Shown one piece after another: positions 3,694-40,175 of a DNA stretch of 64,000 nucleotides; within the stretch, counting starts at the first letter, position 1, and each line of letters opens with the position of its first letter. The notes under the pieces are model-generated. The model was not told where the DNA came from. It saw only the letters and a list, made by a program, of their open reading frames with translations, and did not search any database. The stretch covers positions 544,001 to 608,000 of the forward strand of contig JBMNFY010000017.1 in the NCBI GenBank assembly GCA_050949565.1. The letters run 5' to 3'. The DNA comes from Kiritimatiellia bacterium. GTDB lineage: Bacteria; Verrucomicrobiota; Kiritimatiellia; RFP12; UBA1067. The position numbers and the translations under genes were made by a program.

Positions 3694-3761
3694 AAACCGC
3701 CAAGGTGCCAAGAACACCAAGGAAATCATGATTTTCATGAAGTTTCATGTGCTTCATGGTT
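3694..3761. repeat. CCAAG triple module followed by a lone right-hand CATGAA inverted-repeat end
   Basis: AAACCGCCAAGGTGCCAAGAACACCAAG, then TTTCATGAAGTTTCATGTGCTTCATGGTT at 3733..3761 (1 mismatch to consensus). Confidence 0.85.
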
Positions 3762-10880: not shown

Positions 10881-11048
10881 GATGAATTGCGTAAGGCGTA
10901 CGATACGATGCACGCGCACATTTCTTGGAGTATGGCGGACGCGCTGACGGCGTTTGATGCCGCGACCGCCGCTGCGACTCGGAAAGGTCGTGCGCCCAGC
11001 GATCCGGTGCATGACGCGTTCGCGCAGATCACGGCCCGCTTCACGTGA
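10881..11048 (+). pseudogene. Internally deleted 3' fragment of a paralog of the GntR gene at 24646..25404
   Basis: Translates DELRKAYDTMHA|HISWSMADALTAFDAATAAATRKGRAPSDPVHDAFAQITARFT*, matching two segments of the GntR that lie 95 codons apart. Confidence 0.9.
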
Positions 11049-11054
11049 TGGCTC

Positions 11055-11510
11055 AAACCATGAAACACATGAAACTTCATGAAAGGTTGAGGGCATGAAA
11101 GAAAAGATCACGGCGGTCTATGAAGAGGAGTGCTATCAGATACGCGGGGCCTTGTATGACGTGTACACGGTGCTCGGAACTGGTTTCTCGGAAGAGGTCT
11201 ACCAAGAGGCGCTGGAGAAAGAATTTGCCATGCGCCATATCCCTTTTGTGTCACAGCAAGTCCTGCGATTTCATACAAAGGGGAATGGCTTGCAAAGACC
11301 TACAAAGCAGATCTGGTCTGTTACGACAAAATCATTCTCGAATTGAAAGCTGTCAAAGCCCTGCTTTCCGAGCACGAGGCGCAACTCATCAATTACCTTA
11401 AAGCAACCGGAATGCGTCTGGGCTTTCTCGTCAACTTTTGTCATTTTCCCAAGGCAGAGATACGCACATATGTAAACTAATTTCATGAAGTTTCATGTGT
11501 TTCATGGTTT
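11055..11510. mobile_element. CATGAA-IR element 1 carrying a frameshifted GxxExxY gene
   Basis: Perfect 30-bp inverted repeats at 11055..11084 and 11481..11510 enclose only the RBS and ORF. Confidence 0.75.
11095..11480 (+). pseudogene. GxxExxY protein (PD-(D/E)XK-like), 1-nt frameshift near 11266
   Basis: GFSEEVY motif; CTGCGATTT here versus CTGCGGATTT in the intact copy at 21123. May be a sequencing error. Confidence 0.85.
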
Positions 11511-11525
11511 AAACTCCTTTCCCTG

Positions 11526-11565
11526 TTGACAGCCGCCAGCCGAACGTGATATAAAACCGGTATAC
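11526..11565 (+). promoter_or_regulatory. Sigma70 promoter with candidate operator AAAACCGGTATAC (copy 2)
   Basis: TTGACA 11526, TATAAA 11550; lies immediately after the right IR. Confidence 0.7.
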
Positions 11566-11613
11566 AGCTTTTATTAACCTGTGTTTTAACCGGTGTGGCA
11601 AGAGGAGTTAGGT

Positions 11614-14600
11614 ATGCATGCTCAAGGACGGAGTTCACGGTTTGCTGTTTCAATCAAGACGGGGGCGGTCATTGGGCTGTTCCTCCTTATGGGCGCACAT
11701 GGTGCACGTGCCGCCGACGCAGTGCTCAGTTTCAGTGCCAGTGGCCAGCGGGTTGTCACCACCGGCCAGATCACGGCCAATGACTTCACAGCGGAGGCGT
11801 GGTTCAAGCTATCCAGCTACATCTCTGAAAACCAGATCTTTTCGCAATACCGCGACGATGCCGGTCGCTTTATTGTCGGTATCAAGGACAAGGTCGCGGG
11901 CATGTTCATCGGCGGCACCTGGATGACGGGCAGCGGTACGATCCCGCTCAATACTTGGACTCACATTGCTGTCTCGCGTAGCAACACGACCTGGACCATC
12001 TACATCAACGGCCAGTTCTATACGAACGGCGTCCATAACGCGAATCCTCTCGCCAACACAACGTTTGCAATCGGCGCGATCGGCACCACGGCACCGGGCT
12101 TCCGGGGAGAGATCAGCGATGTGCGTGCCTGGAATACGGTCCGCTCTCAAGCGCAGATCGCTGGCGGGTTGGACACGCGCCTTACCGGCACTGAGGCAGG
12201 ACTTGCGCACTACTGGCCGCTGAATGAGGGCTTAGGTAGTACGGTCGCGGATCTTGCTGCTGGAGCCTCAGGAACGCTCGGTGCCGGTGTTGCTTGGGCC
12301 GTTAGTACCGATCTGCCGTTCTCGACGGCGCGACAGGACGGCACCGTTGCCTACTGGCGGCTGGACGCAGATGCGTCCGGTACGTTGGACACGCGCGACT
12401 TTATCGGCAACGCCCGCTTGTCGAGCGGTCTCGATATAACCGCGCACACAACAACCATGCAGGCCAGCCGCAATCAGGCGTTCAGCGGCCAACCGCCGAA
12501 CAGCACGCTGCCCCTGCCGAACGGTAACTCCGGTTCGGCGTACGCGCAGGCCAACGGTGCCTGTCTGCGCGTCACCGATCTGGGACGCCACTTGGAAATC
12601 ACCAACAGCTTTACGGTCGAGGGTTGGATCGCTCCGCACCGGCAAGATTATGATACAGACATCCAGTACATCGCTAATACGCGTGTTTTCACCAAGGGAT
12701 GGGCCTTCGCGCTCAAACGCATGTCGGACGGCACGCGCAGGCTCGTCATCTACGCTGGGGATGACAGTGGCGTTCAAGTTGGCGACGCATCGCTCTCCGG
12801 CGACCTGGCGGCGTGGGCGGACACCTGGCGGCATGTGGCGCTGGTCTATGATGCAAATGCGGGCGAACAGGCGCAGGGTGCCTGGCGGTGCTATCTGGAT
12901 GGCGAGCTGCAGGGCGCGGCCACCAATCAACAGGCGCGTGTCGGCACCACTGCCTCCGAGTATTTCCATTTGGCCGGCCGCATTGGCGGCCACCCCGCTA
13001 CTTTCTGCGGTTATCTGGATTGTTGGCGTGTGAGCCAGGCCGCGCTCGTACCCGAGCAGTTTCTCAACGCGACCGACGGCGCGGTCGCCGCGACCGACGT
13101 GCTGGCGCTATGGCCGCTGAATTCAACGGACGGGGTCTACTTCGATGGTTCGGACGTGACCGGCAACTGGTCGTTCGGCACACCGTTGACAGCCTTGCAC
13201 AAGGCCACAGGCAGCACATCGCAGGCGGTAACCCCGCTTCCCAATCCGGATGCGTCGGCCGCATTTCGCGGTGATCCCGCCGTCAATACTGGCAGTCTGG
13301 TGTTCAACACACCGGCGGCAGCAGCCAAGCGCGCGTATCTCGCCTCCGACAATTATACCGTGCGCGACACGCTCTGTTACACCAACAGCTTTACACTGGA
13401 GGGGTGGTTCTATCGGACACTGAATCCGGGCGGCTGGCAACTTCTCTTTGCGACGGGCGGGGCACCGGTGTTCAGCAATCCGATCGTCGGCCTGTCACTC
13501 AATTTCACCTACCGGACCAACGGTTACGTGCTCTTCGCGGGTGGTGGGTGGCCGGGGACGCTCGTGAGCGATGTGTCGTTCGGCACTGGGTCGATTGATA
13601 ACGAACTGAACGTCTGGCGGCATGTTGCGTTGGTCTACGACGTGACCGTCGGCAAGGGGACCTGGTCGCTCTATGTGGACGGCACGCTCAAAGGCAGCAT
13701 CGAAAACAACACAGTGCCGACCCGTTCCGTACCGGCTTACTTCTATATCGGCGGGCGCCCGTGGTCGGACAACGCGTTCAACGGCGCGATCGATACCGTG
13801 CGCCTGACGCGCGGCGTGCTCGCGCCGTCGCAGTTCCTCAATGCTGCAGGCGCACCGCCGCCCGCTCCGCCCGCGCCCGCGACGGTCGCCTATTGGAAGC
13901 TGGATGACGACGGCGCCGCGCTCGATGCCTCCAGCCAGGTGGAGCCGCGCTACGGCTTCGCGCTGGATGCGTACGCGCCTCGCCGCTTCGGCGGCGCAGT
14001 TCAAGCGCTTCGTCCCGGTGCCGGACACGACGCCCGGCTTCATCGGCGAACCCGCGCGCCAACGCCGGTTCGGCGGCTTTTGACAGTGCCAATTATTTGC
14101 GTGTGCAGAGTCTTGGCATCCGAGTCGAAATGGATTGCGCTTTTACGGTCGAGGGCTGGATGTTCTGGAGCAACCGGGCCGCCCGTGCGGTGCAAACGAT
14201 CGCGGGAACGCGCTTCGACGCGACGTACGGCTGGAGGCTGTCGCTTGAAAAGAACGGCGACGCGGCGGCGTTCCGGCTCTTCTGTCGTACGCCGAATCAG
14301 ACGCCGCTGATTGATGCCACTTTCGCTTTTGATGCCGCTGGACTAGCCGACGCGTGGCACCATCTGGCGCTGACCTTTACGCCCCGCCGCAATGATACCG
14401 GCACATGGGAACTCTTCGTTGACGGGGTCTCGGTCGGTACGCTTGAAAACATCTTCTATCCCGCCGTGCCTCACCGGAGCCACTGGTTTGCGCTGGGTGG
14501 GCAGGCCGATGGCACCGATTCGTCGTTCGACGGACTGCTCGACTGCTGGCGCGTCTCGGAGGGTGCGCGGACGCCCGACACCTTCCTGTATTTGGGGTAT

Positions 14601-14630
14601 GACAAAGGGACACTGCTGAAGATCCGCTGA
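11614..14630 (+). pseudogene. Large secreted multi-LamG (concanavalin A-like) protein with two apparent frameshifts (~13978, ~14050)
   Basis: Repeated FT(V/A/L)E(G/A)W...WRHVALVYD...WxLY(V/L)DG...FxGxxDxxR units continue across ORFs 11593..14310, 13841..14083 and 14097..14630. Ends GTLLKIR*. Confidence 0.8.
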
Positions 14631-14636
14631 TGAGGG

Positions 14637-15063
14637 AACCATGAAACACATGAAACTTCATGAAAGTTTTTTTGAGGGCATTGCTCGGGTTTGTTTAACC
14701 ACAGAGAACACAGAGAGCACAGAGTTTTTTGAGGGGGCGGGGCTGGCCGCAAATTTATTGCGACCACCTAGTGGTCGCAATGATGAGTGTAAAAGCACTG
14801 CTCGGTTGTTTCACGCGAAGGCGCGAAGACGCGAAGGTTGGAGGGCGAGTGTCCCCACGAGCCGCCTTCCGCTGAGCGGAAGGATGGGAGGGACGAGCGT
14901 CGCTCGTCCGCGGGCAAGCAGACGCTTGCCCCTCCCTGCGCTTCGCAAGCCAGATGACACGAGATGGAGGGCGGCATCTGGGTGGCGCACAAAATTGAAT
15001 TGGGGTGCGGGCTCCGCTAAAAAGGAGTTCTTGATTTCATGAAGTTTCATGTGTTTCATGGTT
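14637..15063. mobile_element. CATGAA-IR element 2 (427 bp, non-coding, packed with repeat modules)
   Basis: 29-bp IRs at 14637..14665 and 15035..15063; about 5 substitutions versus 16273..16699. Confidence 0.8.
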
Positions 15064-15120
15064 AAAAAAGTCCTCCCTCTAATCGGGATTGGAACGAAAA
15101 ATGTGACGAAAGGATATGTG

Positions 15121-16272
15121 ATGAAAAAAACACTTGTTGTTTCGACTGTTAGCCTCTTGTTTGCTGCGGCTGCTTTCTGCCAGCCGCCTAAGGCCCCGCC
15201 ACCGGAGCATGCCGGTCCGCCGCTGCCGCGTCATGCAGTCACCAACCGCGCTTTCACTGGCATCTCCAGCCTGGCGGTCGCACCCAACGGTCGGCTCTGG
15301 GTAACCTGGTATGCCGGCCACACGCCGGGCGAGGACCGCAATAACTATGTGGTGCTCGCTACCAGCGGTGATGGTGGCGCGACTTGGAAGGAACTGCTCA
15401 CTGTGGACCCCGACGGCGGGGGGCAACGTCGCACCTTCGATCCCGAAGTGTGGATTGCGCCGGATGGTCGGCTACGCTGGATATGGAGCGACCGTACCAT
15501 GCCGCACAGCGGTGTGTCGTCCGACGCGATCTGGATGATCGTGCTCGACGATCCCGCGTCGGAAAGCACTGCATGGCACCCGCCGGTATATGTCACGCAG
15601 GGCGTGATGATGTGCAAGCCCATCGTGCTCTCTTCAGGCGAGTGGGCGCTGCCGGTCTGTACGTGGTATTCGGAGAACAGTTCGAAAATGGTGGTCTCCA
15701 CTGACAACGGCAAGACGTGGTCGGTGCGCGGCGGCGCGAACATGCCTAGGGAAGACCGCTGTTTTGACGAGCACATGTTTGTGGAACGCAAGGACGGCTC
15801 GATCTGGTGTCTGTCGCGCGCCAAATCCGGCATCCGCGAGGCGGTCTCGACCGACCGTGGCGCAACATGGTCGCCGCTGGAGCCGTCGCCGATCCAGCAC
15901 CCGTCGGCACGCTTCTTCATCACGCGGCTGCTCTCCGGCAACCTGCTGCTTGTGAAGCACGGTCCGATTGAAAGGAAGACCGGTCGTTCGCATCTCATGG
16001 CCTTTGTGTCGAAGGACGATGGCCGGAGATGGGAGGGCGGCCTGATGCTCGATGAGCGGAACGGTGTCTCCTATCCCGACGGCCAGCAGGCGGCGGACGG
16101 CACGATCTACATCACATACGATTTTGACCGTATCGGCAAACGCCATATCCTCTTCTCCACCTTCCGCGAGGAGGACGTGCTGGCCGGCAAGCCGGTTTCC
16201 GGCGCGGTACGTCTGCGCCAGATCGTGAGCGAGGGATCGGGTGGTGTCAAACGGTCTGAGGCCGCTAAATGA
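15121..16272 (+). CDS. Secreted sialidase-family (BNR/Asp-box) protein
   Basis: Asp boxes SGDGGATW, STDNGKTW, STDRGATW, SKDDGRRW; VSYPD; signal peptide from ATG 15121. Confidence 0.88.
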   Translation: MKKTLVVSTVSLLFAAAAFCQPPKAPPPEHAGPPLPRHAVTNRAFTGISSLAVAPNGRLWVTWYAGHTPGEDRNNYVVLATSGDGGATWKELLTVDPDGGGQRRTFDPEVWIAPDGRLRWIWSDRTMPHSGVSSDAIWMIVLDDPASESTAWHPPVYVTQGVMMCKPIVLSSGEWALPVCTWYSENSSKMVVSTDNGKTWSVRGGANMPREDRCFDEHMFVERKDGSIWCLSRAKSGIREAVSTDRGATWSPLEPSPIQHPSARFFITRLLSGNLLLVKHGPIERKTGRSHLMAFVSKDDGRRWEGGLMLDERNGVSYPDGQQAADGTIYITYDFDRIGKRHILFSTFREEDVLAGKPVSGAVRLRQIVSEGSGGVKRSEAAK

Positions 16273-16699
16273 AACCATGAAACACATGAAACTTCATGAA
16301 AGTTTTTTTGAGGGCATTGCTCGGGTTTGTTTAACCACAGAGAACACAGAGAGCACAGAGTTTTTTGAGGGGGCGGGGCTGGCCGCAAATTTATTGCGAC
16401 CACCCAGTGGTCGCAATGATGAGTGTAAAAGCACTGCTCGGTTGTTTCACGCGAAGGCGCGAAGGCGCGAAGGTTGGAGGGCGAGTGTCCCCACGAGCCG
16501 CCTTCCGCTGCGCGGAAGGATGGGAGGGACGAGCGTCGCTCGTCCGCAGGCAAGCAGACGCTTGCCCCTCCCAGCGCTTCGCAAGCCAGATGACACGAGA
16601 TGGAGGGCGGCATCTGGGTGGCGCACAAAATTGAATTGGGGTGCGGGCTCCGCTAAAAAGGAGTTCTTGATTTCATGAAGTTTCATGTGTTTCATGGTT
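16273..16699. mobile_element. CATGAA-IR element 3 (427 bp direct duplicate of element 2)
   Basis: Begins at the base after the sialidase stop; same length and content as 14637..15063. Confidence 0.8.
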
Positions 16700-16710
16700 T
16701 AAGGAGAGGA

Positions 16711-18504
16711 ATGATGAGAGAGTTGATGATAGTCGCGACCGTAACGATCACACTGTGCGGGCTGGTACCGCTTCACGCGCGCGCTAACGCGCCGCTTGTC
16801 TCCTGCGCGTTGTTGAGCGGGCCGGGCGCGGCGCTTGAGAAGATCACCGGTGTGCATCCCGGCGTTATCGAAGAGGGGGCCACCGTGTTCACCGACCGCG
16901 CCTTCGTCTACCATCGGCCGCCCGCTGGCCTCAAGGGTATGCCTGCGTTGGTGGGATCGATCGATTGCGACGTGCCGGTCACCGTGTCCAAAGACGGCCT
17001 GCTCACCGTGCTCACGCCAGCACCGGACATCAAGGGCGCGTTCTGCTCAAATGCCCCCGAATTGGAAGCGCGCGGCTTCACATGGGTTCAGTCTCCGGCG
17101 CAGTTCCAATTGTTCGGAGAGAATCCTGTCGACACCGTGCGCATTTATCAGAAAGCCGTCACGCGCGGCGAGTCGTTCACCTTTAAGAAATGGGTCGTGC
17201 TGGCGGGTGTCGATTTCGCAGGCCAAGATTTCTTCACGCCGAACGCACGGGTGGCGCGTGTGGTCGAGGCGCTGAAGGCCGACACGACCCGTCTGGACGC
17301 AAAGCTAAACGCGCAGGACATTCTGGTCAACCGTCCCGACTATGTGGTGTTCATTCCCCGGCAGCCGCGCGACAAGACAAAGCGCGATCCCGCTCGGCCT
17401 GGCGACACCTACAACGACCACTTTCAGGTGATCGAGCACGAGGGCATGCTGTACGCCTTCTGGACGCAAGCCTCGCGCGAGGCGGATATTGACCAGCACA
17501 TCGCTTTCTCAAAAAGCGCGGACAAAGGCGAGAGCTGGAGCGAGCCCGTGGTTCTGGCCGGTTCGCCCAACAAGAAAAACCCGGCGCTGTTGGCGAGTTG
17601 GCAACAACCAATGATCAGCGCGTCGGGCCGTATCTACTGCCTGTGGAATCAACAAACCACCAGCCGCGGGCCGCACTGTGGCCAGATGTTCGGCGCGTAT
17701 TCTGATGACAAGGGAGACACATGGTCGGCACCGAAAATGATACCGCTGAAGCGCAGCATTCTGGATGATCCCGATCCATTGATACCACCGAGCTGGTGCA
17801 ACTGGCAGCGCCCGTTGCGTCTGGGCAAAGGGGGGCGTTACCTGGTGGGCGTCTCGCGGCACGGTAAACTGCCGGACGCCAAACGGGGCGGATGCTATAT
17901 TGAGTTCTTGCAGTTTGACAACATCGACGACAATCCCAAGGTCGAGGACATCCGGCTGAGCTGGTTTTCGAGCGACGAGAAGGTACTGCGCGTCAGCCAC
18001 GAAAAATTCGGCGATGCTGCAGAGGAGGTCGGTCTCGTTAAGCTGCCGGACGGTCGTCTTTTCGGCATCATGCGCACCGGCGCGGGGTACCCCTACTGGA
18101 CGCAGAGCCGTGATAACGGCGTGACCTGGACGCAGCCCCGGCCGCTCCTGGATCGCGACGGCGGCAAGCCCTATCTGCACCCGCGCTCGCCCTGTCCGAT
18201 CTACGACTGGAAGGGGTGCGAGGCCGCCAGCGGCTACTACTTTGCCCTTGTCCACAACACCTTCGACTTTGACGGCAAAAGCGAGTATCAGCATCGCGGC
18301 CCGCTCTATCTGATCGCGGGCCGGTTTAACCCAAACGCCGAGCAGCCGGTCGAGTTTGCGCCGCCGAAACTTTTCGCCGAGCGCAAGGGCGGCAACTCGT
18401 TCTACACGAGCTATACGATCATGGACGGCAAAGGCATCCTCTGGTTCCCCGACCACAAGTTTTATCTGCTCGGACGTGAGATCGGGGAGGAGTGGTTTAA
18501 GTAG
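16711..18504 (+). CDS. Secreted sialidase-like (Asp-box) protein with an N-terminal accessory module
   Basis: RBS AGGAGAGG then ATG 16711; Asp boxes SADKGESW, SDDKGDTW, SRDNGVTW. Confidence 0.82.
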   Translation: MMRELMIVATVTITLCGLVPLHARANAPLVSCALLSGPGAALEKITGVHPGVIEEGATVFTDRAFVYHRPPAGLKGMPALVGSIDCDVPVTVSKDGLLTVLTPAPDIKGAFCSNAPELEARGFTWVQSPAQFQLFGENPVDTVRIYQKAVTRGESFTFKKWVVLAGVDFAGQDFFTPNARVARVVEALKADTTRLDAKLNAQDILVNRPDYVVFIPRQPRDKTKRDPARPGDTYNDHFQVIEHEGMLYAFWTQASREADIDQHIAFSKSADKGESWSEPVVLAGSPNKKNPALLASWQQPMISASGRIYCLWNQQTTSRGPHCGQMFGAYSDDKGDTWSAPKMIPLKRSILDDPDPLIPPSWCNWQRPLRLGKGGRYLVGVSRHGKLPDAKRGGCYIEFLQFDNIDDNPKVEDIRLSWFSSDEKVLRVSHEKFGDAAEEVGLVKLPDGRLFGIMRTGAGYPYWTQSRDNGVTWTQPRPLLDRDGGKPYLHPRSPCPIYDWKGCEAASGYYFALVHNTFDFDGKSEYQHRGPLYLIAGRFNPNAEQPVEFAPPKLFAERKGGNSFYTSYTIMDGKGILWFPDHKFYLLGREIGEEWFK

Positions 18505-18538
18505 AGCTTAGAAAGGTGGACAGCGCGGTTGGAATGAG

Positions 18539-18738
18539 ACCATGAAACACATGAAACTTCATGAAAGGTGGGGCATGGTTAGTGTATTGGTGCGTTAGTT
18601 CATCAGTGCATTAATTTGGTTCCATCGGAATCGGGATCGGGACCGAAATCGATAGAGAGTGAATAGTGGGGGGCTGTGCGGACACAAACCGCTAAAAAGG
18701 AGTTCTTGATTTCATGAAGTTTCATGTGTTTCATGGTT
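18539..18738. mobile_element. CATGAA-IR element 4 (200 bp, different internal modules)
   Basis: IRs at 18539..18566 and 18710..18738. Interior has TTAGTGC-like and ATCGGG-like repeats and shares the CCGCTAAAAAGGAGTTCTTGA tail with elements 2 and 3. Confidence 0.8.
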
Positions 18739-18766
18739 TAGAACGGTATGAAAAAGGAGAGGAAAG

Positions 18767-20899
18767 ATGAGAGGGATGATGATAATCGCGGCCATAACGA
18801 TCATGCTGTGCGGGTTGGCACCGCTTCATGCACAGCCGCGCGATACGCCCTTGCCGGGACGCGGTGCCGCACTCTTCGTGCAAGGGATTTTTGAGCAGGA
18901 TACGTTTACCGAAGGTGCGCGACTCTTCCCGGACCGCACTTACACAGTGGCTGAAGCGCCCGCTTGGTTGCGCGGGTCGACCTTCCTGCGCGCAAGCATT
19001 GATGGCAACCTTACCGTGACGGTCAAGCAAGCCGGTGTGTTGACGGTGATTACGGCCGATCCCGCCGATCCGCTCGCCACGCATTCGCAATGCACGCGTC
19101 TGGAGGAACTGGGGTTTGTCTGGGTCAAGGCACCGGCGACCTTTCAGCTTTTCGGCAAAGCGGCTCACGACATCAGCCGCACTTATCAGAAACTGGTCGC
19201 GCAGGACGAAACGTTCAACTTTCCCAAGTGGACGGTGTTCGCCGGTTTCTCCGAGGTGACCGGGCCGCCGCTGCCGTTCGACCTTCTGCCAGAGCGCGGC
19301 GAGCGACTTTACAACGGCATCGAACTTTCAACCAACTGGCCGCCGCGCACCGTGAACACGACGAACTGGGCGCCGATGGCCGTGCCGTATCTGACCGCGC
19401 CGCCGGAGTTGATCCATATTGATGTGGGGCGGCAACTCTTTGTGGACGACTTCCTGATTGCGACCAGCACGTTGCAGCGCGTCTTCGGTATGCCTGAGAA
19501 GTACACCGGCAACCCGGTGCTGCGTCCAGAGACCGAACTGGAGTTGAACGGCATCCGGAACGCCGCAGCCGTGCCGAAGGGTGGCGGGCTCTGGTGGGAT
19601 CCCTACGAACGGCTGTTCAAGCTCTGGTATGAGGCGGGCTGGATCCACACCATTTGTTACGCCACCAGCACAAACGGTCTGCACTGGGAGCGGCCGAAGT
19701 TGGACGTGGTGCCGGACACCAATCAGGTGCTGCCGCCGGACTTGACACCAGACTCCTGGACCGTGGTGCCCGATTGGGAGGCGACCGATCCGCTGCAGCG
19801 CTATAAAATGTTTATGCGCGGGCCCGGCGGGACAATGCCCGGGGTGAGTATGACTTCGGCGGATGGCATTCACTGGGTGAATCGTGTAGTTACTGGCCAC
19901 ACCGGCGATCGTAGCACCATGTTCTATAATCCATTCCGGCGCAAATGGATCTACAGCCTGCGGAGCGGCTGGCGCGGACGGTCACGCGATTATAGGGAGA
20001 GCGACAACTTCCTGCGCGGTGCTTCTTGGAGCGCGGCGGATACCGTGCGTTGGTTGGCCGTGGATGAGAAGGACCCCAAGGATCCGAAAATCCAGCGGGT
20101 GCCGCAACTCTACAACTTTGACGCGGTAGCCTACGAGAGCATCATGCTGGGTGCATTTGAGATTCACCACGGACCGGAGAACGACGTCTGCATGAAAGTC
20201 GGTTTGCCGAAAATCACGGAGTTGAATTTCGCCTACAGCCGCGACGGGTTCCACTGGTCGCGGCCTGACCGCAGAGCGCACATCCGCGCGGAACGTTGGG
20301 GCAGCGGCAAATGGGATACCGGCTATGTGCAGTCGCTCGGCAATCTTTGCACGATTCAGGGCGACAAGCTCTGGTTCTATTACTCCGGATTTCAAGGCGA
20401 CACCAATCGCCTCAGCGGCGACTGGTTGCAGAACGGCATGTACGACAACGGTGCCATGGGCATCGCCTTCTTGCGGCGCGATGGCTTCGCGGCTATGCGG
20501 GCGGGAGACGGTGGTGGAGAACTCGTCACGCGGCCATTGCTCTTCAGCGGTGCGTGTGTGTTTGTGAATGTGGCGTGTCCACAAGGCGAGTTGCGCGTGG
20601 AGGTGCAGGATGTCGAAAGCGAGACGGCCATTCCGGGTTTTGCGCTGGCCGAGTGCCGCCCCGTCTCCGTCGACAGCACCCTGCACCGCATCACCTGGCA
20701 AGACGCCGACACCGTCAGGGCTTTGCGTGGCCGACCGGTCCGTTTCCGTTTCGCATTGTCCAACGGCGCGCTGTACGCTTTCTGGGTCAGTCGTGATGAA
20801 AGCGGTCGCAGCGACGGCTATGTAGCGGGCGGCGGACCGGGATACACCGGGCCGACTGACACGGTGGGGGCTGCCGCGTTGTTGCAAGATGAACCATGA
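18767..20899 (+). CDS. Secreted five-bladed beta-propeller glycoside hydrolase-like protein (GH32/GH43-clan-like) with the same N-terminal module as 16711
   Basis: GRQLFVDDFLI, CYATSTNGLHWERP, SADGIHW, AYSRDGFHW, LRRDGF; its stop codon lies inside the next IR. Confidence 0.75.
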   Translation: MRGMMIIAAITIMLCGLAPLHAQPRDTPLPGRGAALFVQGIFEQDTFTEGARLFPDRTYTVAEAPAWLRGSTFLRASIDGNLTVTVKQAGVLTVITADPADPLATHSQCTRLEELGFVWVKAPATFQLFGKAAHDISRTYQKLVAQDETFNFPKWTVFAGFSEVTGPPLPFDLLPERGERLYNGIELSTNWPPRTVNTTNWAPMAVPYLTAPPELIHIDVGRQLFVDDFLIATSTLQRVFGMPEKYTGNPVLRPETELELNGIRNAAAVPKGGGLWWDPYERLFKLWYEAGWIHTICYATSTNGLHWERPKLDVVPDTNQVLPPDLTPDSWTVVPDWEATDPLQRYKMFMRGPGGTMPGVSMTSADGIHWVNRVVTGHTGDRSTMFYNPFRRKWIYSLRSGWRGRSRDYRESDNFLRGASWSAADTVRWLAVDEKDPKDPKIQRVPQLYNFDAVAYESIMLGAFEIHHGPENDVCMKVGLPKITELNFAYSRDGFHWSRPDRRAHIRAERWGSGKWDTGYVQSLGNLCTIQGDKLWFYYSGFQGDTNRLSGDWLQNGMYDNGAMGIAFLRRDGFAAMRAGDGGGELVTRPLLFSGACVFVNVACPQGELRVEVQDVESETAIPGFALAECRPVSVDSTLHRITWQDADTVRALRGRPVRFRFALSNGALYAFWVSRDESGRSDGYVAGGGPGYTGPTDTVGAAALLQDEP

Positions 20900-21112
20900 A
20901 ACACATGAAACTTCATGAAAAGGCGGGGTGTGGTTAGGGAACCATGAAACACATGAAACTTCATGAAAAGGCGGGGTGTGGTTAGGGAACCATGAAACAC
21001 ATGAAACTTCATGAAAAGGCGGGGTGTGGTTAGGGAACCATGAAACACATGAAACTTCATGAAAAGGCGGGGTGTGGTTAGGGAACCATGAAACACATGA
21101 AACTTCATGAAA
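20892..21112 (+). repeat. Tandem array: five left IRs separated by an identical 19-bp spacer (48-bp period)
   Basis: Units start at 20892, 20940, 20988, 21036 and 21084; spacer AGGCGGGGTGTGGTTAGGG. Confidence 0.95.
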
Positions 21113-21538
21113 GGTGAGGGGTATGAAAGAAAAGAGCGTGATGGTTTATGAAGAGGAGTGTTATCAAATACGCGGGGCCTTGTATGAGGTATATACGGTG
21201 CTCGGGACTGGTTTCTCGGAAGAGGTTTACCAAGAGGCACTGGAGAGAGAGTTTGCTGTGCGCCATATCCCGTTTGTATCACAGCAAGTCCTGCGGATTT
21301 CATACAAAGGAGAATGGCTCTCAAAGACCTACAAAGCAGATCTGGTCTGTTACGACAAAATCATTCTCGAATTGAAGGCTGTCAAAACCCTGCTTCCTGA
21401 GCACGAGGCGCAACTCCTCAATTACCTTAAAGCAACCGGAATGCGTCTAGGTTTTCTCGTCAACTTTTGTTGTTTTCCCAAGGCGGACATACGCACGTAT
21501 GTAAACTAATTTCATGAAGTTTCATGTGTTTCATGGTT
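21084..21538. mobile_element. CATGAA-IR element 5 carrying an intact GxxExxY gene
   Basis: Left IR 21084..21112; right IR 21510..21538 starts directly after the stop codon. Confidence 0.78.
21123..21509 (+). CDS. GxxExxY protein (PD-(D/E)XK nuclease-like)
   Basis: LGTGFSEEVYQEAL, ADLVCYDKIILELKAV, HEAQLLNYLKATGMRLGFLVNF; 128 aa. Confidence 0.93.
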   Translation: MKEKSVMVYEEECYQIRGALYEVYTVLGTGFSEEVYQEALEREFAVRHIPFVSQQVLRISYKGEWLSKTYKADLVCYDKIILELKAVKTLLPEHEAQLLNYLKATGMRLGFLVNFCCFPKADIRTYVN

Positions 21539-21545
21539 GAAAAGT

Positions 21546-22796
21546 ATGAAAAAAATTAAACAACTCCTTTCGGTTCTTGGTCCCGGCATCTTTGCGATCG
21601 GTTACACGATCGGCACCGGCAGCGTCACCTCGATGGCGAAGGCCGGCAGTCAGTACGGACTGCAACTGCTCTGGGTGCTCTTCCTGATCTGTCTGTTTTC
21701 AGGTGTGCTGATGGAGGCGTACGGACGCATGGCGGCGGTGACCGGTGGCACCTCGTTGCACGCCGTGAAGCGTCATCTGCCGTTCGGCCGCACGCTGGCC
21801 ATCCTGATTCTGATCGGCGTGGCGACGGCGCAGTACACCTGTCTGGGCGGAATCTTGACGCTATCGTCCGGCGCGATCTACGAGACGCTCGCCCTTTACG
21901 TTCCCTCCTTGCCAAAGGAGAACTACGCTGCGACACTGGGCATCGCCGTGGTGCTGATCGCGTTGATGTACAGCCTGCTCATGATCGGACGCTACAGCTT
22001 CTTTGAGAAAGTGCTGGCTTTCTTTGTGATGATCATGGGAATCACCTTCTTGATCTCAATGTTCGTGGTCTGGCCGTCGCCGGAAATCCTCAAACAGGCG
22101 CTGATCCCATCAATCCCCGATGAGCCGGGCGCACTGCTGATGATTGCGGCCTTTGTGGGTACCACGATGGCGGCGCCCACATTCGTCACCCGACCGTTAC
22201 TGCTGAAAGAGAAGGGGGTGGGCGTAGCTGACCTCAAGGAACAAACGCTCGATTCCGTAGTCTCCGCGTCGCTGATGTTTTTGATCAGCGGCTCGATCAT
22301 GGTTGTCGCGGCCGGCGCGCTCTACGCGCACGGCAAGGAGATCGTCAAGATCCTCGACATGGTTCACACGCTCGAGCCGCTAGCTGGCCGATTCGCGGTC
22401 GCGCTGTTCATGACGGGGACGCTGAGCGCCGGTCTCTCTTCGATCTTCCCGATCTTGATGGTCGCCCCGCTGCTGATCTCCGACTATCGCGTGGGGCACA
22501 TGGAGCCGCGCAGCAAGACCTTCCGGGTGCTCTGTCTGGTGGCGGCGTGTGCAGGCTTGATCGTGCCGGCGCTGGGTGGCCGCAATCCGGTGGCGGTTAC
22601 GATCATGGCACAGATCTCCAATGTTTTTGTGTTGCCGCTGACTGTCGCCGTGATCTTGGTGCTGGTGAACCGGCGCGATCTGATGGGAGAGCACCGCGCC
22701 GGTCCGTTGCTGAACATCGGCTTGGCGCTGGCCGGTCTTTTCGCGTGCATCATCGCCGTGACCGGCCTGCGCGCGCTACTTGATGCATGGTTTTGA
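21546..22796 (+). CDS. Nramp-like (APC superfamily) membrane transporter
   Basis: LGPGIFAIGYTIGTGSVT, GLQLLW, AAFVGTTMA; about 11 TM segments; lacks the canonical DPGN. Confidence 0.82.
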   Translation: MKKIKQLLSVLGPGIFAIGYTIGTGSVTSMAKAGSQYGLQLLWVLFLICLFSGVLMEAYGRMAAVTGGTSLHAVKRHLPFGRTLAILILIGVATAQYTCLGGILTLSSGAIYETLALYVPSLPKENYAATLGIAVVLIALMYSLLMIGRYSFFEKVLAFFVMIMGITFLISMFVVWPSPEILKQALIPSIPDEPGALLMIAAFVGTTMAAPTFVTRPLLLKEKGVGVADLKEQTLDSVVSASLMFLISGSIMVVAAGALYAHGKEIVKILDMVHTLEPLAGRFAVALFMTGTLSAGLSSIFPILMVAPLLISDYRVGHMEPRSKTFRVLCLVAACAGLIVPALGGRNPVAVTIMAQISNVFVLPLTVAVILVLVNRRDLMGEHRAGPLLNIGLALAGLFACIIAVTGLRALLDAWF

Positions 22797-24619: not shown

Positions 24620-24637
24620 AACCATGAAACACATGGT
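24620..24637. repeat. Collapsed CATGAA-IR site (candidate empty site or footprint)
   Basis: AACCATGAAACACATGGT is the outer part of one IR fused at CATG to the outer end of the other. Confidence 0.7.
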
Positions 24638-24645
24638 ATGAGCTA

Positions 24646-25404
24646 TCACGTGAAGCGGGCCGTGATCTGCGCGAGCGCGTCATGTACCGGATCGCTGGGT
24701 GCGCGGCCGCTCCGAGTCGCGGCGGCGGTCGCGGCATCAAACGCCGTCAGCGCGTCCGCCATACTCCAAGAAATGTGCGCGTGCATCCAGCGAGCCGCAG
24801 CGCTCGGGTCGCCGCGCCGTATCGCACGCTCGACCTCGGCATGCTGACGCCACGCCCAGGCAACGTGGCGCAAGTCGCGCTTGTGGCTGTACTGGCCGAA
24901 GAAGAGATTACGCTGGTAGACGTTGGTTACGATCTTGATGGCCAAGTGGTTGCCGGCCGCTTTGAGCAACAGCAAATGGAACGAGAGGTCTGCCGTGAGA
25001 AATGTAACCAGCGGTCGGCCCTCCAGCAGCGGACGACGCCGCGTACGCAGACTGACAGCCATCGCATGCATCGTCTCGCACGCCTTGCGCAATTCATCGC
25101 GGTTGGCTTTGGTGAGGTTCCGCACCGCACGTTCCATGGCGAAGGTCTCAAGTGCCATCCGCACTTCAAAGGCATCGATGAGCTGACGCCGGTCCGGCCG
25201 CGCGACATACGTGCCGCTGGACGGGATCTGATAGAGCAGCCCCTCCTCCGTCAGCCGACGCACCGCCTCGCGCACCGGCGTACGGCTAATCCCGCACTCG
25301 GCAGCAATCGTCTGCTCGGAGAGCTTTTGCCCTGCCACCAGTTCGCCACTCACCAATTTCTTGCTGATGTGCCGATAGGCGACATCACTCAACGTTTCAC
25401 CCAC
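24646..25404 (-). CDS. GntR family regulator (FCD/FadR-type)
   Basis: LSEQTIAAECGISRTPVREAVRRL HTH; ADLSFH...AGN...QHAEV C-terminal domain. Confidence 0.93.
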   Translation of the reverse strand: MGETLSDVAYRHISKKLVSGELVAGQKLSEQTIAAECGISRTPVREAVRRLTEEGLLYQIPSSGTYVARPDRRQLIDAFEVRMALETFAMERAVRNLTKANRDELRKACETMHAMAVSLRTRRRPLLEGRPLVTFLTADLSFHLLLLKAAGNHLAIKIVTNVYQRNLFFGQYSHKRDLRHVAWAWRQHAEVERAIRRGDPSAAARWMHAHISWSMADALTAFDAATAAATRSGRAPSDPVHDALAQITARFT

Positions 25405-39821: not shown

Positions 39822-40175
39822 GGTCTAACGCGGGCGGAGCCCGCAACCCAAGTTCATTAGTTAATTAGTTTGTCCGGGAGCGCACTGCCCCAAAAAACCT
39901 TCGTGCCTCTGTGAGAGAAAAACAGAACCATGAAACACATGAAACTTCATGAAAATTGAAGCCTTTCCTTTGCGTTCTCTGCGTTCTTTGCGGCCATTTA
40001 TGTAGCCATGCCTATTCGATTCGCGACAATTCGCATCATTCGCGGTTAAAAATCCGTCGCCATGCCACCCAAAAACATCTGCGTAATCTGTCATCTGTGG
40101 ATGTAAAAAACCGAGCCATGCCCCAAAAACCTCTGCGTCTCTGCGCCTCTGCGTTAAACAAACAATTTGTTTTTG
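39822..40175 (-). repeat. Modular array of triple-repeat units, inverted homolog of 60733..61122; contains a lone CATGAA IR at 39926..39954
   Basis: The reverse complement reads CGCAGAG x3, CAGAT x3, GCGAAT x3, CGCA(A/G)AG x3, IR, CACAGAG, CTAATT modules, with GGCATGGC(TCGG) linkers. Confidence 0.85.

Follow-up and report, generated by a model that had tools for sequence, protein, structure and literature searches.

Locus architecture

A stretch of 64,000 nucleotides (the window; positions 544,001–608,000 of contig JBMNFY010000017.1, here C17) from the genome of a Kiritimatiellia bacterium, coded G000, was analysed. The window contains a row of same-strand genes for carbohydrate-active enzymes (CAZymes), in which five consecutive gaps are bounded by inverted copies of a short repeat, the arm, and two of these gaps carry a copy of a gene for a small protein of the GxxExxY family (PDDEXK_3; PF13366/TIGR04256). 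Coordinates are window positions unless a contig is given. The hexamer CATGAA was found 91 times in the window as compared to 30.45 expected occurrences (standard deviation 5.8), and none of 100 shuffles reached 91. This roughly threefold excess is observed because a single 27-nt arm recurs, which consists of CC and three CATGAA cores with a period of 9–10 nt and is usually preceded by AA. Together with the AACC/GGTT anchor, the inverted repeats are 28–30 nt long and form perfect pairs. Thus, the description given in an initial annotation of the sequence, namely that five consecutive gaps are each bounded by one triple-CATGAA inverted repeat, is correct. Exact left (L) and right (R) arms delimit all five gaps, the flanking genes of which were named by Pfam (Table 1).

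Two of the five units contain the GxxExxY gene. In both copies, 10 nt separate the L arm from the ATG and the R arm follows immediately on the stop codon, as had been noticed before. However, the statement that two arm pairs enclose a ribosome-binding site and a GxxExxY open reading frame (ORF) holds in full for copy B only because copy A is frameshifted. The other three gaps were said to carry only repeat modules, and they are occupied by non-coding fillers. Fillers 1 and 2 are near-identical 427-bp units of other triple-repeat modules, filler 3 is a different 200-bp unit, and about 21 nt ahead of the R arm are common to all three. The gene-bearing units and the gene-less fillers are bounded by the same 28–30 nt arms, and the proposal that they represent autonomous and non-autonomous versions of one element finds support far outside the present locus. 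Moreover, the stop codon of the 710-aa gene (20897–20899), which had been placed inside an inverted repeat, is the TGA within the first CATGAA core of the tandem L arms.

Table 1. Coordinates of the arm-bounded gaps and of related features in the window
Feature	Position	Strand	Description
Gap between GH141-like beta-helix gene and LamG gene	11055–11510		Element A with gene copy A; 27-mer L/R at 11058/11481
L arm of element A	11055–11084	+	AAACC and three CATGAA cores
GxxExxY copy A	11095–11480	+	Frameshifted pseudogene
R arm of element A	11481–11510	-	Reverse complement of L arm
Filler 1, gap between LamG and BNR genes	14637–15063	+	L arm, 370-nt non-coding interior, R arm; CACAGAG x3 and CGCGAAG x3 modules, internal hairpins; 27-mer L/R at 14639/15035
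Filler 2, gap between BNR and BNR genes	16273–16699	+	Near-identical to filler 1; 27-mer L/R at 16275/16671
Filler 3, gap between BNR and 710-aa genes	18539–18738	+	L arm, 143-nt interior, R arm; 27-mer L/R at 18540/18710
Gap between 710-aa and Nramp genes	21084–21538		Element B with gene copy B; 27-mer L/R at 21086/21510
Five tandem L arms	20892–21112	+	48-bp period; first overlaps stop of 710-aa gene
Leader GGTGAGGGGT	21113–21122	+	Shine-Dalgarno-like; between L arm and copy B ATG
GxxExxY copy B	21123–21509	+	Intact, 128 aa
R arm of element B	21510–21538	-	9 nt ahead of Nramp start
Solo R-type arm	3733–3759	-	One mismatch
Solo L arm	39928–39954	+	Within mixed module array
Arm remnant	24620–24638		First 7 nt joined to last 12 nt of arm

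Pairing of the GxxExxY gene with triple-core modules

The genome G000 possesses six GxxExxY loci, and modules are present on both sides of the gene at all six of them. Five paralogues have five different types of end module (CATGAA, CACAGAA/CACGGAA, CGCAGAG, CACGAAT and CGCAAAG). By comparison, a module lies within 600 nt of one of the five Y1_Tnp loci of G000 and near an end of 141 of 1000 random genes. For loci from 28 other genomes of the phylum taken together with those of G000, the score of the cognate upstream/downstream inverted repeat was at least 12 at 20 of 33 loci vs 4.7% of 1056 mismatched pairings.

The pairing extends far beyond the phylum. A cross-phylum set was compiled of 80 loci encoding proteins that are 50–64% identical to copy B, and the 72 titled rows cover 14 NCBI phyla. 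A module is located at most 70 nt away on either side of the gene at 70 of these loci, as compared to 11% in shuffles and 15 of 69 windows displaced by 400 nt. Modules occur on both sides at 48 loci (shuffles 0.3%; displaced windows 1/69), and 33 loci have an L module upstream and an R module downstream (shuffles 0.1%; displaced windows 0/69). Most of the cross-phylum cores are CACGAA (37) or CACGGA (15), of which CATGAA is a rare variant with the same design. On a protein tree with 91 rows, the core label changes 31 times, whereas 300 shuffles gave 46.1 changes on average and never fewer than 41. The host phylum is also clustered on the protein tree (34 vs 47.7). Clades have a common core across phyla, and the titled rows of a 12-row CACGGA/CACAGA clade come from seven NCBI phyla. 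The idea that each GxxExxY subfamily co-varies with its own flanking triple repeat is supported both by the proportion of loci with modules and by the module type following the protein clade. Furthermore, among 121 genomes of the phylum, at least five triple-core matches were found in 46 of 61 GxxExxY-positive vs 3 of 60 GxxExxY-negative genomes; kin are not independent in this comparison and P values are therefore overstated.

Some of the loci deserve mention for their surroundings. Two more GxxExxY paralogues of G000 (L001 and L003; G000:C17:1382000-1384000 and 1745900-1747800) are located directly after genes that look like parts of restriction-modification systems or defence islands. In eight genomes of the phylum (L005, L006, L012, L017, L018, L021, L029 and L030), a GxxExxY unit occupies one and the same conserved spacer and must therefore be an old insertion inside an operon. 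The gene following this spacer starts with a conserved (Y/F)E(A/P)VIGLE(I/V/T)H motif, which is suggestive of a GatB-like protein.

The GxxExxY protein

Copy B matches PF13366 with 132.9 bits (cut-off 22) and TIGR04256 with 132.7 bits (cut-off 35). Copy A lacks 1 nt in comparison with copy B and is read in two frames, with matches of 46.6 and 77 bits, and it is therefore a pseudogene; its interior is 89.9% identical to that of copy B over 397 columns. An alignment of 74 sequences revealed that G30, E33, D73, K85 and Q97 are invariant and that Y36, E83 and Y101 are at least 90% conserved. Copy B has every residue of the GxxExxY and D...ExK motifs.

The AlphaFold model of copy B (predicted local distance difference test, pLDDT, 94.5) has a restriction-endonuclease-like fold resembling RecB, Cas4 and lambda exonuclease. 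The top Foldseek matches of this model are the Cas4 protein SSO0001 (4ic1, E = 2.4e-4, template-modelling score 0.58), lambda exonuclease (3slp), LHK-Exo and RecE, and further matches are the nuclease domains of MGME1 and AdnAB. Judged by the model, the fold is that of the RecB-like branch acting on DNA ends. A sequence search of the PDB with a five-protein profile gave no match. A structure model with three copies of copy B reached a score of 0.46, while the best of three controls reached 0.26; in the calibration of this score, 20 of 30 proteins solved as same-chain pairs pass the mark, as does 1 of 23 single-chain proteins, although the present job with three copies and a custom alignment was unlike this calibration. 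The contacts agreed to at least 73% between runs and the pLDDT of the partners was at least 80. The modelling supports self-association of copy B. The modelled interface is head to tail, with residues 59–70 packing against residues 26–42, which is the geometry expected on direct repeats.

Distribution of arms and modules in the genome

A scan of the genome and its relatives for the arm, as suggested in the initial annotation, revealed that it is not local. The 4.66-Mb genome contains 154 arm copies (141 perfect, 11 with one mismatch and two with two mismatches), and a control search with the reversed pattern gave none. Among these, only the five pairs of the present locus are close L..R pairs that are less than 500 bp apart. 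While 64 copies are located outside same-orientation arrays, the rest belong to arrays of 4–21 units with periods from 48 to 729 bp. The arms are intergenic, and most of the 28 cases in which an arm seemed to lie inside a gene are false ORFs across arrays. In total, 1,163 triple-core modules of many types were obtained from 4,596 raw matches with a detector that has no shuffled-genome control of its own; for a strict triple-core pattern, 440 matches were counted in G000 vs nine for the reversed control. One array outside the window (G000:C17:1052915-1055128) consists of four tandem copies of a 729-bp unit, each with a CATGAA arm, other modules and, as judged by eye, a tRNA-like stretch.

Two observations concern the fillers and the arm remnant of the window. 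The fillers are mosaics (14690–15030 and 16330–16670), in which every L-type module of another family is preceded by a T-run and a GAGGGCATTGCTCGG-like linker. The first 10 nt of this linker are identical to the leader ahead of the ATG of copy A, and the linkers may be leaders left behind by gene loss. The remnant at 24620–24638 adjoins an inverted paralogous copy (24645–24785) of the 138-nt flank on the left of element A, and could have arisen by an internal deletion or through an inversion between arms.

The strain or near-identical DNA is present in digester, biogas, bioreactor and landfill metagenomes, and 13 runs besides the probable source contain half or more of the sampled words. All four sequencing runs that were compared consist of assembled contigs, which are unable to show excision or circles. 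The DNA contigs of runs X3 and X6 are interrupted at arms, which is usual for assemblies at repeats, and match filler 3 (18541–18718) and copy B (21087–21351 and 21322–21538) without any difference. A contig of run X15 that aligns to 21168–21538 differs in 27 letters and shows the 1-nt gap of copy A, and thus reflects copy A rather than copy B. A lone joint from 18571 to 21083 in the same run (side 28) was given no weight as it is an arm-to-arm assembly join. Run X16 has no cover over 21125–21478, which is not evidence for silence of copy B.

Polymorphism and decay in related genomes

The arms are better conserved than the sequences between them. Between elements A and B, none of the 58 arm positions differ as compared to 40 of 397 interior columns (P = 0.002). 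A genome of another genus (G136) possesses a GxxExxY orthologue between an aldolase gene and the Nramp gene, which is 84% identical in amino acids and 80.5% in DNA to copy B, and 2 of its 54 arm positions differ vs 19.5% of the gene (P = 0.0008). Therefore, the insertion beside Nramp predates the genus, and the gene evolves faster than its arms. The R arm of element B is present at the same Nramp site in G136, G126, G121 and G124. In G121 and G126, element B has decayed to the first 8 nt of the L arm, the last ~29 nt of the gene and the R arm. A separate deletion in G124 has fused the 3' end of the aldolase gene to the last 27 nt of copy B and the R arm, and a solo L arm is located upstream of the aldolase gene. 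In G000, no aldolase gene was detected by tblastn, indicating that it was lost and not moved. A homing origin of copy B in G000 was considered and dropped: the remnant in G124 is identical to the 3' end of copy B, and a shared ancestor with the order aldolase-L-gene-R and two separate deletions is thus the simpler explanation.

The site of element A is empty in the same-genus genome G122, which has AAAAATT where GCTCA-element-TAAAC is found in G000. Together with the decayed copies of element B and the other gene order in G123 and G126, this supports the expectation that orthologous loci are polymorphic at the arms. In G123 and G126, a ~600-nt pair of genes resembling hicB/hicA is located at the site of element A (L051, G123:C397 830-1440, corresponding to 11050–11515 of the window). 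The spacer can be filled either by element A or by the hicAB-like pair and thus appears to be a repeated landing place for small selfish genes.

Host genes have been affected as well. The comparison of G000 with G122 revealed that filler 2 is a copy of filler 1 and that it took the place of a filler-3-type unit and of ~145 codons of the BNR gene upstream. In G000, the first BNR gene (end at 16270–16272) is ~145 codons shorter than its G122 orthologue (L048) and stops where the filler 1 copy starts. The gene order is BNR-BNR-LamG-710aa-aldolase-Nramp in G123 and G126 vs LamG-BNR-BNR-710aa in G000 and G122, and the LamG and 710-aa genes are only 16 nt apart in G123, G126 and G121, the last of which also deviates in gene order. 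The rearrangements fit ordinary recombination between repeated units. The LamG-repeat gene of G000 (11593–14630) consists of two overlapping ORFs in different frames (11593–14310 and 14097–14630), and both frames were also detected in relatives by tblastn; it may contain a frameshift or combine two LamG paralogues, which occur as separate genes in G123, in a chimera.

Counting arms within two mismatches, there are 154 in G000, 31 in G122, 30 in G124, three each in G136 and G135, two in G128, one each in G121, G125 and G126, and none in the other 22 of the 31 genomes; fragmented genomes undercount.

A proposed selfish repeat-nuclease partnership

The explanation that we favour, and consider probable with substantial reserve, is that the CATGAA arm serves one lineage of GxxExxY nucleases as the cognate end module, and that both form a selfish partnership built like the repetitive extragenic palindromic (REP) sequences with their REP-associated tyrosine transposases (RAYTs) and shaped like the intervening sequences (IVSs) of 23S rRNA. 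The full unit would consist of the L arm with three direct 7-nt cores (period of 8–10 nt) behind the AACC anchor, a leader serving as the ribosome-binding site, the gene for a 128-aa RecB/Cas4-like nuclease and the R arm directly past the stop codon. Fillers, solo arms and tandem arrays would be derivatives of this unit. The protomers would bind the three cores of an arm head to tail via the N-terminal helix, and the D-ExK/QxxxY site would break the DNA at or beside the arm. The break would then be healed by copying from another arm-bearing locus. Such a copy repair would keep the arms identical, move interiors between arm pairs, build arrays and occasionally seed a new intergenic site. At the present locus, the elements would have colonised the short spacers of the CAZyme gene row. 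Transcripts of these spacers could each fold, as a by-product, into a 29–30 bp stem that is expected to be a substrate of RNase III.

In favour of the partnership are the association and co-variation of gene and modules, their co-occurrence in genomes, the constraint on the arms, the mobility and decay of the units, the conserved residues, fold and modelled self-association of the protein, the comparison of cores with spacers and the lead on specificity given below. Several observations weigh against the proposed partnership. We infer the binding to the arm, the cleavage and the route of spread, and a pure copy-repair route cannot seed a site without an arm. No common target-site duplication is present in the flanks of the five units, and none was detected by comparing the filled and the empty site of element A, where 5 + 5 nt replace 7 nt; this agrees with what had been noted initially. 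Solo arms show no orientation bias with respect to the neighbouring genes (26 vs 20 in tandem contexts, arrays inflating both values and the gene calls being crude longest-ORF picks). No module was found at 10 of the 80 cross-phylum loci and at 7 of 28 loci of the same phylum. Conversely, G068 and G074 contain 42 and 18 modules, respectively, without any GxxExxY match, and no cognate gene was found in G122 and G124 despite ~30 arms each, these genomes being 56% and 78% complete with contigs that end at arms. As to the protein, the modelled trimer of copy B is open and not a closed ring, and its passing of the self-association mark may reflect likeness to solved toroidal complexes of related proteins.

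The basis of core recognition was also addressed by comparing CACGAA with CACGGA loci. Most information on the core type is carried by the columns of residues 17, 10, 7 and 13, which share one face of helix 10–27. At residue 17, 34 of 41 CACGAA loci have Q and 18 of 21 CACGGA loci have R, and the relation between residue 17 and position 5 of the core can be regarded as a lead on specificity. However, there are only five independent pairs (three in the same direction, none opposite and two without difference; p = 0.25), and copy B has R17 even though position 5 of its core is A, contrary to the Q/R lead; both findings count against the proposal.

Alternative explanations

It is also conceivable that the element acts at the level of RNA. 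The main role of the arm pairs would then be to build long stems in the transcripts of operons, like those of rRNA IVSs and Correia elements. RNase III would cut these stems and thereby divide the polycistronic mRNA and determine how stable the message of each gene is, with the nuclease gene as a passenger. The arms do close 29–30 bp stems in predicted RNA folds. In these folds, the RNA of filler 3 has a closing stem of 30 bp or more (-93.3 kcal/mol, z = -12.1), and for element B a z of -3.9 was calculated. The elements are located in a same-strand gene row right after stop codons and just ahead of the next start, and a contig from an RNA library covers 18333–18738, i.e. the 3' end of the BNR gene and the whole of filler 3, without any difference, although DNA may have been present in the library. 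Moreover, the size and build match the IVS of Coxiella burnetii with its 444 nt, 28-bp stem and small ORF, as far as the accessible part of that report describes it (PMC4990558). By analogy with this IVS, cutting of the spacer stems by RNase III is plausible, and we treat it as a by-product. However, a stem requires complementarity and not three identical cores per arm. When L arms were compared with the reverse complement of R arms across loci, 125 of 177 spacer positions were identical vs 439 of 450 core positions, although the latter value is partly forced by the core-finding pattern and to that extent speaks less for our explanation. With this restriction, the aligned arms point to a recognition of the cores rather than to the need for a perfect stem. 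The majority of arms have no near partner and occur alone or in arrays of one orientation, with only five close pairs among 154, and they show no bias with respect to transcription. A search of 10900–21700 against Rfam gave no match up to E = 1. The fact that the module type tracks the protein clade is left unexplained as well. Altogether, we consider an element acting mainly at the RNA level unlikely.

We give rather little credit to the possibility that the units are ordinary miniature inverted-repeat transposable elements (MITEs), the arms being terminal inverted repeats that are moved in trans by an unidentified transposase and the GxxExxY gene being cargo. Terminal inverted repeats, gene-less derivatives, the intergenic location and the polymorphism between filled and empty sites would agree with this, and genes for Y1_Tnp-like proteins and integrases are present elsewhere in the genome. 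However, there is no target-site duplication, and the modules accompany the GxxExxY loci of G000 rather than its Y1_Tnp loci. The modules are also nearly confined to genomes encoding GxxExxY proteins, the build of gene plus arm recurs in 14 phyla and the type of the arm follows the protein tree.

The chances seem slim that the GxxExxY protein is a sequence-specific DNA-binding regulator, whose nuclease activity was lost or tamed and whose operators are the arms, mediating self-repression and acting at many intergenic sites. Three phased direct repeats do resemble operator or iteron arrays, the L arm overlaps the region of translation initiation of the gene itself, and gene and modules co-occur in genomes. 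However, no exchange is seen at the catalytic residues D73, K85 and Q97, and E83 hardly varies. Moreover, tandem arrays of up to 21 copies, gene-less units, the repeated decay of the gene while arms persist and insertions that truncate or replace host genes argue against a regulon.

Finally, it is scarcely credible that the arms are recombination sites making each CAZyme gene an integron-like, movable cassette, as the initial annotation had envisaged: despite the different gene order of G123/G126 and G000/G122 within one genus and the position of the G124 aldolase gene between an L and an R arm, the arm pairs bracket spacers and not CAZyme genes, no tyrosine recombinase (PF00589) was detected in the window, the nearest being located at C17:750768, ~143 kb past the window end, the other gene order or compact spacers occur in G123 and G129 in the complete absence of arms, the aldolase arrangement of G124 can be accounted for by a deletion within an older element, and G000 has simply lost the aldolase gene.

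Comparison with known systems

The closest known systems are the REP elements and REPINs with their RAYT (TnpA_REP) genes and the rRNA IVSs. According to the accessible parts of the relevant studies, the former resemble the unit described here in that short intergenic repeats are dispersed in tens to hundreds of copies and a low-copy gene for the cognate enzyme is flanked by an inverted pair of its own repeats (PMC3116915, PMC3337134, PMC5581495, PMC8266576). Moreover, paralogues go along with different repeat families, the repeats form clusters and arrays, and there is a dominant master sequence. However, RAYTs are HUH Y1 transposases, whereas the enzyme of the present unit is a 128-aa PD-(D/E)XK nuclease of the RecB/Cas4 type. 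In contrast to REP sequences, described in the part of the source available as imperfect palindromes with a GTAG/CGTC tag (PMC3733652), the arm consists of three direct cores and has neither a tag nor a palindrome beyond CATG. As far as the same sources go, a further difference is that the pairing of repeat and enzyme gene spans at least 14 phyla here and that the gene often lies between operon genes.

The IVS in the 23S rRNA of C. burnetii comprises 444 nt with a 28-bp stem and a small S23p ORF, and is cut by RNase III (PMC4990558). The accessible text of this report shows a similar build to the present unit, which has ~430–460 nt and terminal inverted repeats of 28–30 bp that close a stem around an ORF of ~120 aa. 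Both reside in transcribed DNA, and further likenesses are the selfish character, horizontal acquisition followed by vertical maintenance and an ORF prone to decay. However, IVSs are located in helix 9, 25 or 45 of the 23S rRNA and encode a four-helix bundle, whereas the unit here lies between protein genes, encodes a nuclease, and has triple-repeated arms that also occur solo and in arrays. A unit with these properties lacks defining features of REP/REPIN-RAYT systems (enzyme class and palindromic repeats) and of rRNA IVSs (rRNA site). For TnpB in IS605-family elements, the part of the source available reports that nuclease-driven homing maintains selfish DNA (PMC10690162). Here too, the element would encode a nuclease, and the proposal is that its cuts are mended by copying of the element. 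In contrast to TnpB as portrayed there, which is RNA-guided and a partner of a transposase, recognition would be achieved by the protein and no transposase was seen.

Integron arrays are built of IntI, attI and attC sites that are imperfect palindromes, in contrast to the present locus with its arms of triple direct repeats and a window free of PF00589. As in MITEs and classical transposons, terminal inverted repeats are common to gene-less units and an autonomous copy, but target-site duplications are missing. The Correia-type MITEs of Neisseria are inverted-repeat-bounded, non-coding units in operon spacers that are co-transcribed and generate a TA duplication. The fillers resemble them as inverted-repeat-bounded, non-coding units inside operon spacers. 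To our knowledge, there is no gene associated with Correia elements.

Significance

The function of PF13366/TIGR04256 was listed as 'Unknown' in the accessible part of a survey of PD-(D/E)XK proteins from 2012 (PMC3424549). No published description of the pairing of GxxExxY genes with triple repeats was found in the openly searchable literature, a scope that leaves out subscription journals and supplements, and four 16-nt module strings had no match in openly searchable papers. Likewise, the abstracts of the REPIN/RAYT literature do not mention a PD-(D/E)XK partner, and a paper in which GxxExxY is mentioned gives no more than the name of the domain. The constant genomic partner gives this large family a testable role.

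Tentatively, and with considerable doubt, a more general proposal can be made. GxxExxY proteins might be pan-bacterial small nucleases that read DNA (or RNA) by the face of the N-terminal helix with residues 7, 10, 13 and 17 and polymerise head to tail on three phased 7-nt cores, with Gln17 specifying A and Arg17 specifying G at position 5 of the core. In this way, they might drive a class of intragenomic replicators that is distinct from REPINs and that reshapes operon spacers, deletes and truncates host genes and builds satellite arrays. If true, PF13366 would thereby receive its first function, and the family would amount to a recognition module that has been diversified in nature and can be re-targeted.

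The costs for the host are visible at the present locus, where one gene has been lost, one has been truncated and every spacer of the CAZyme row is now a long hairpin. The proposed partnership would be a second and phylogenetically much wider case of the REP/RAYT principle, by which repeats are kept by a low-copy, host-resident nuclease, with another enzyme and another design of the repeat. It may account for many as yet unexplained repeat arrays between genes, and for breaks in assemblies, in the genomes of Verrucomicrobiota, Desulfobacterota, Bacteroidota, Planctomycetota and other phyla.

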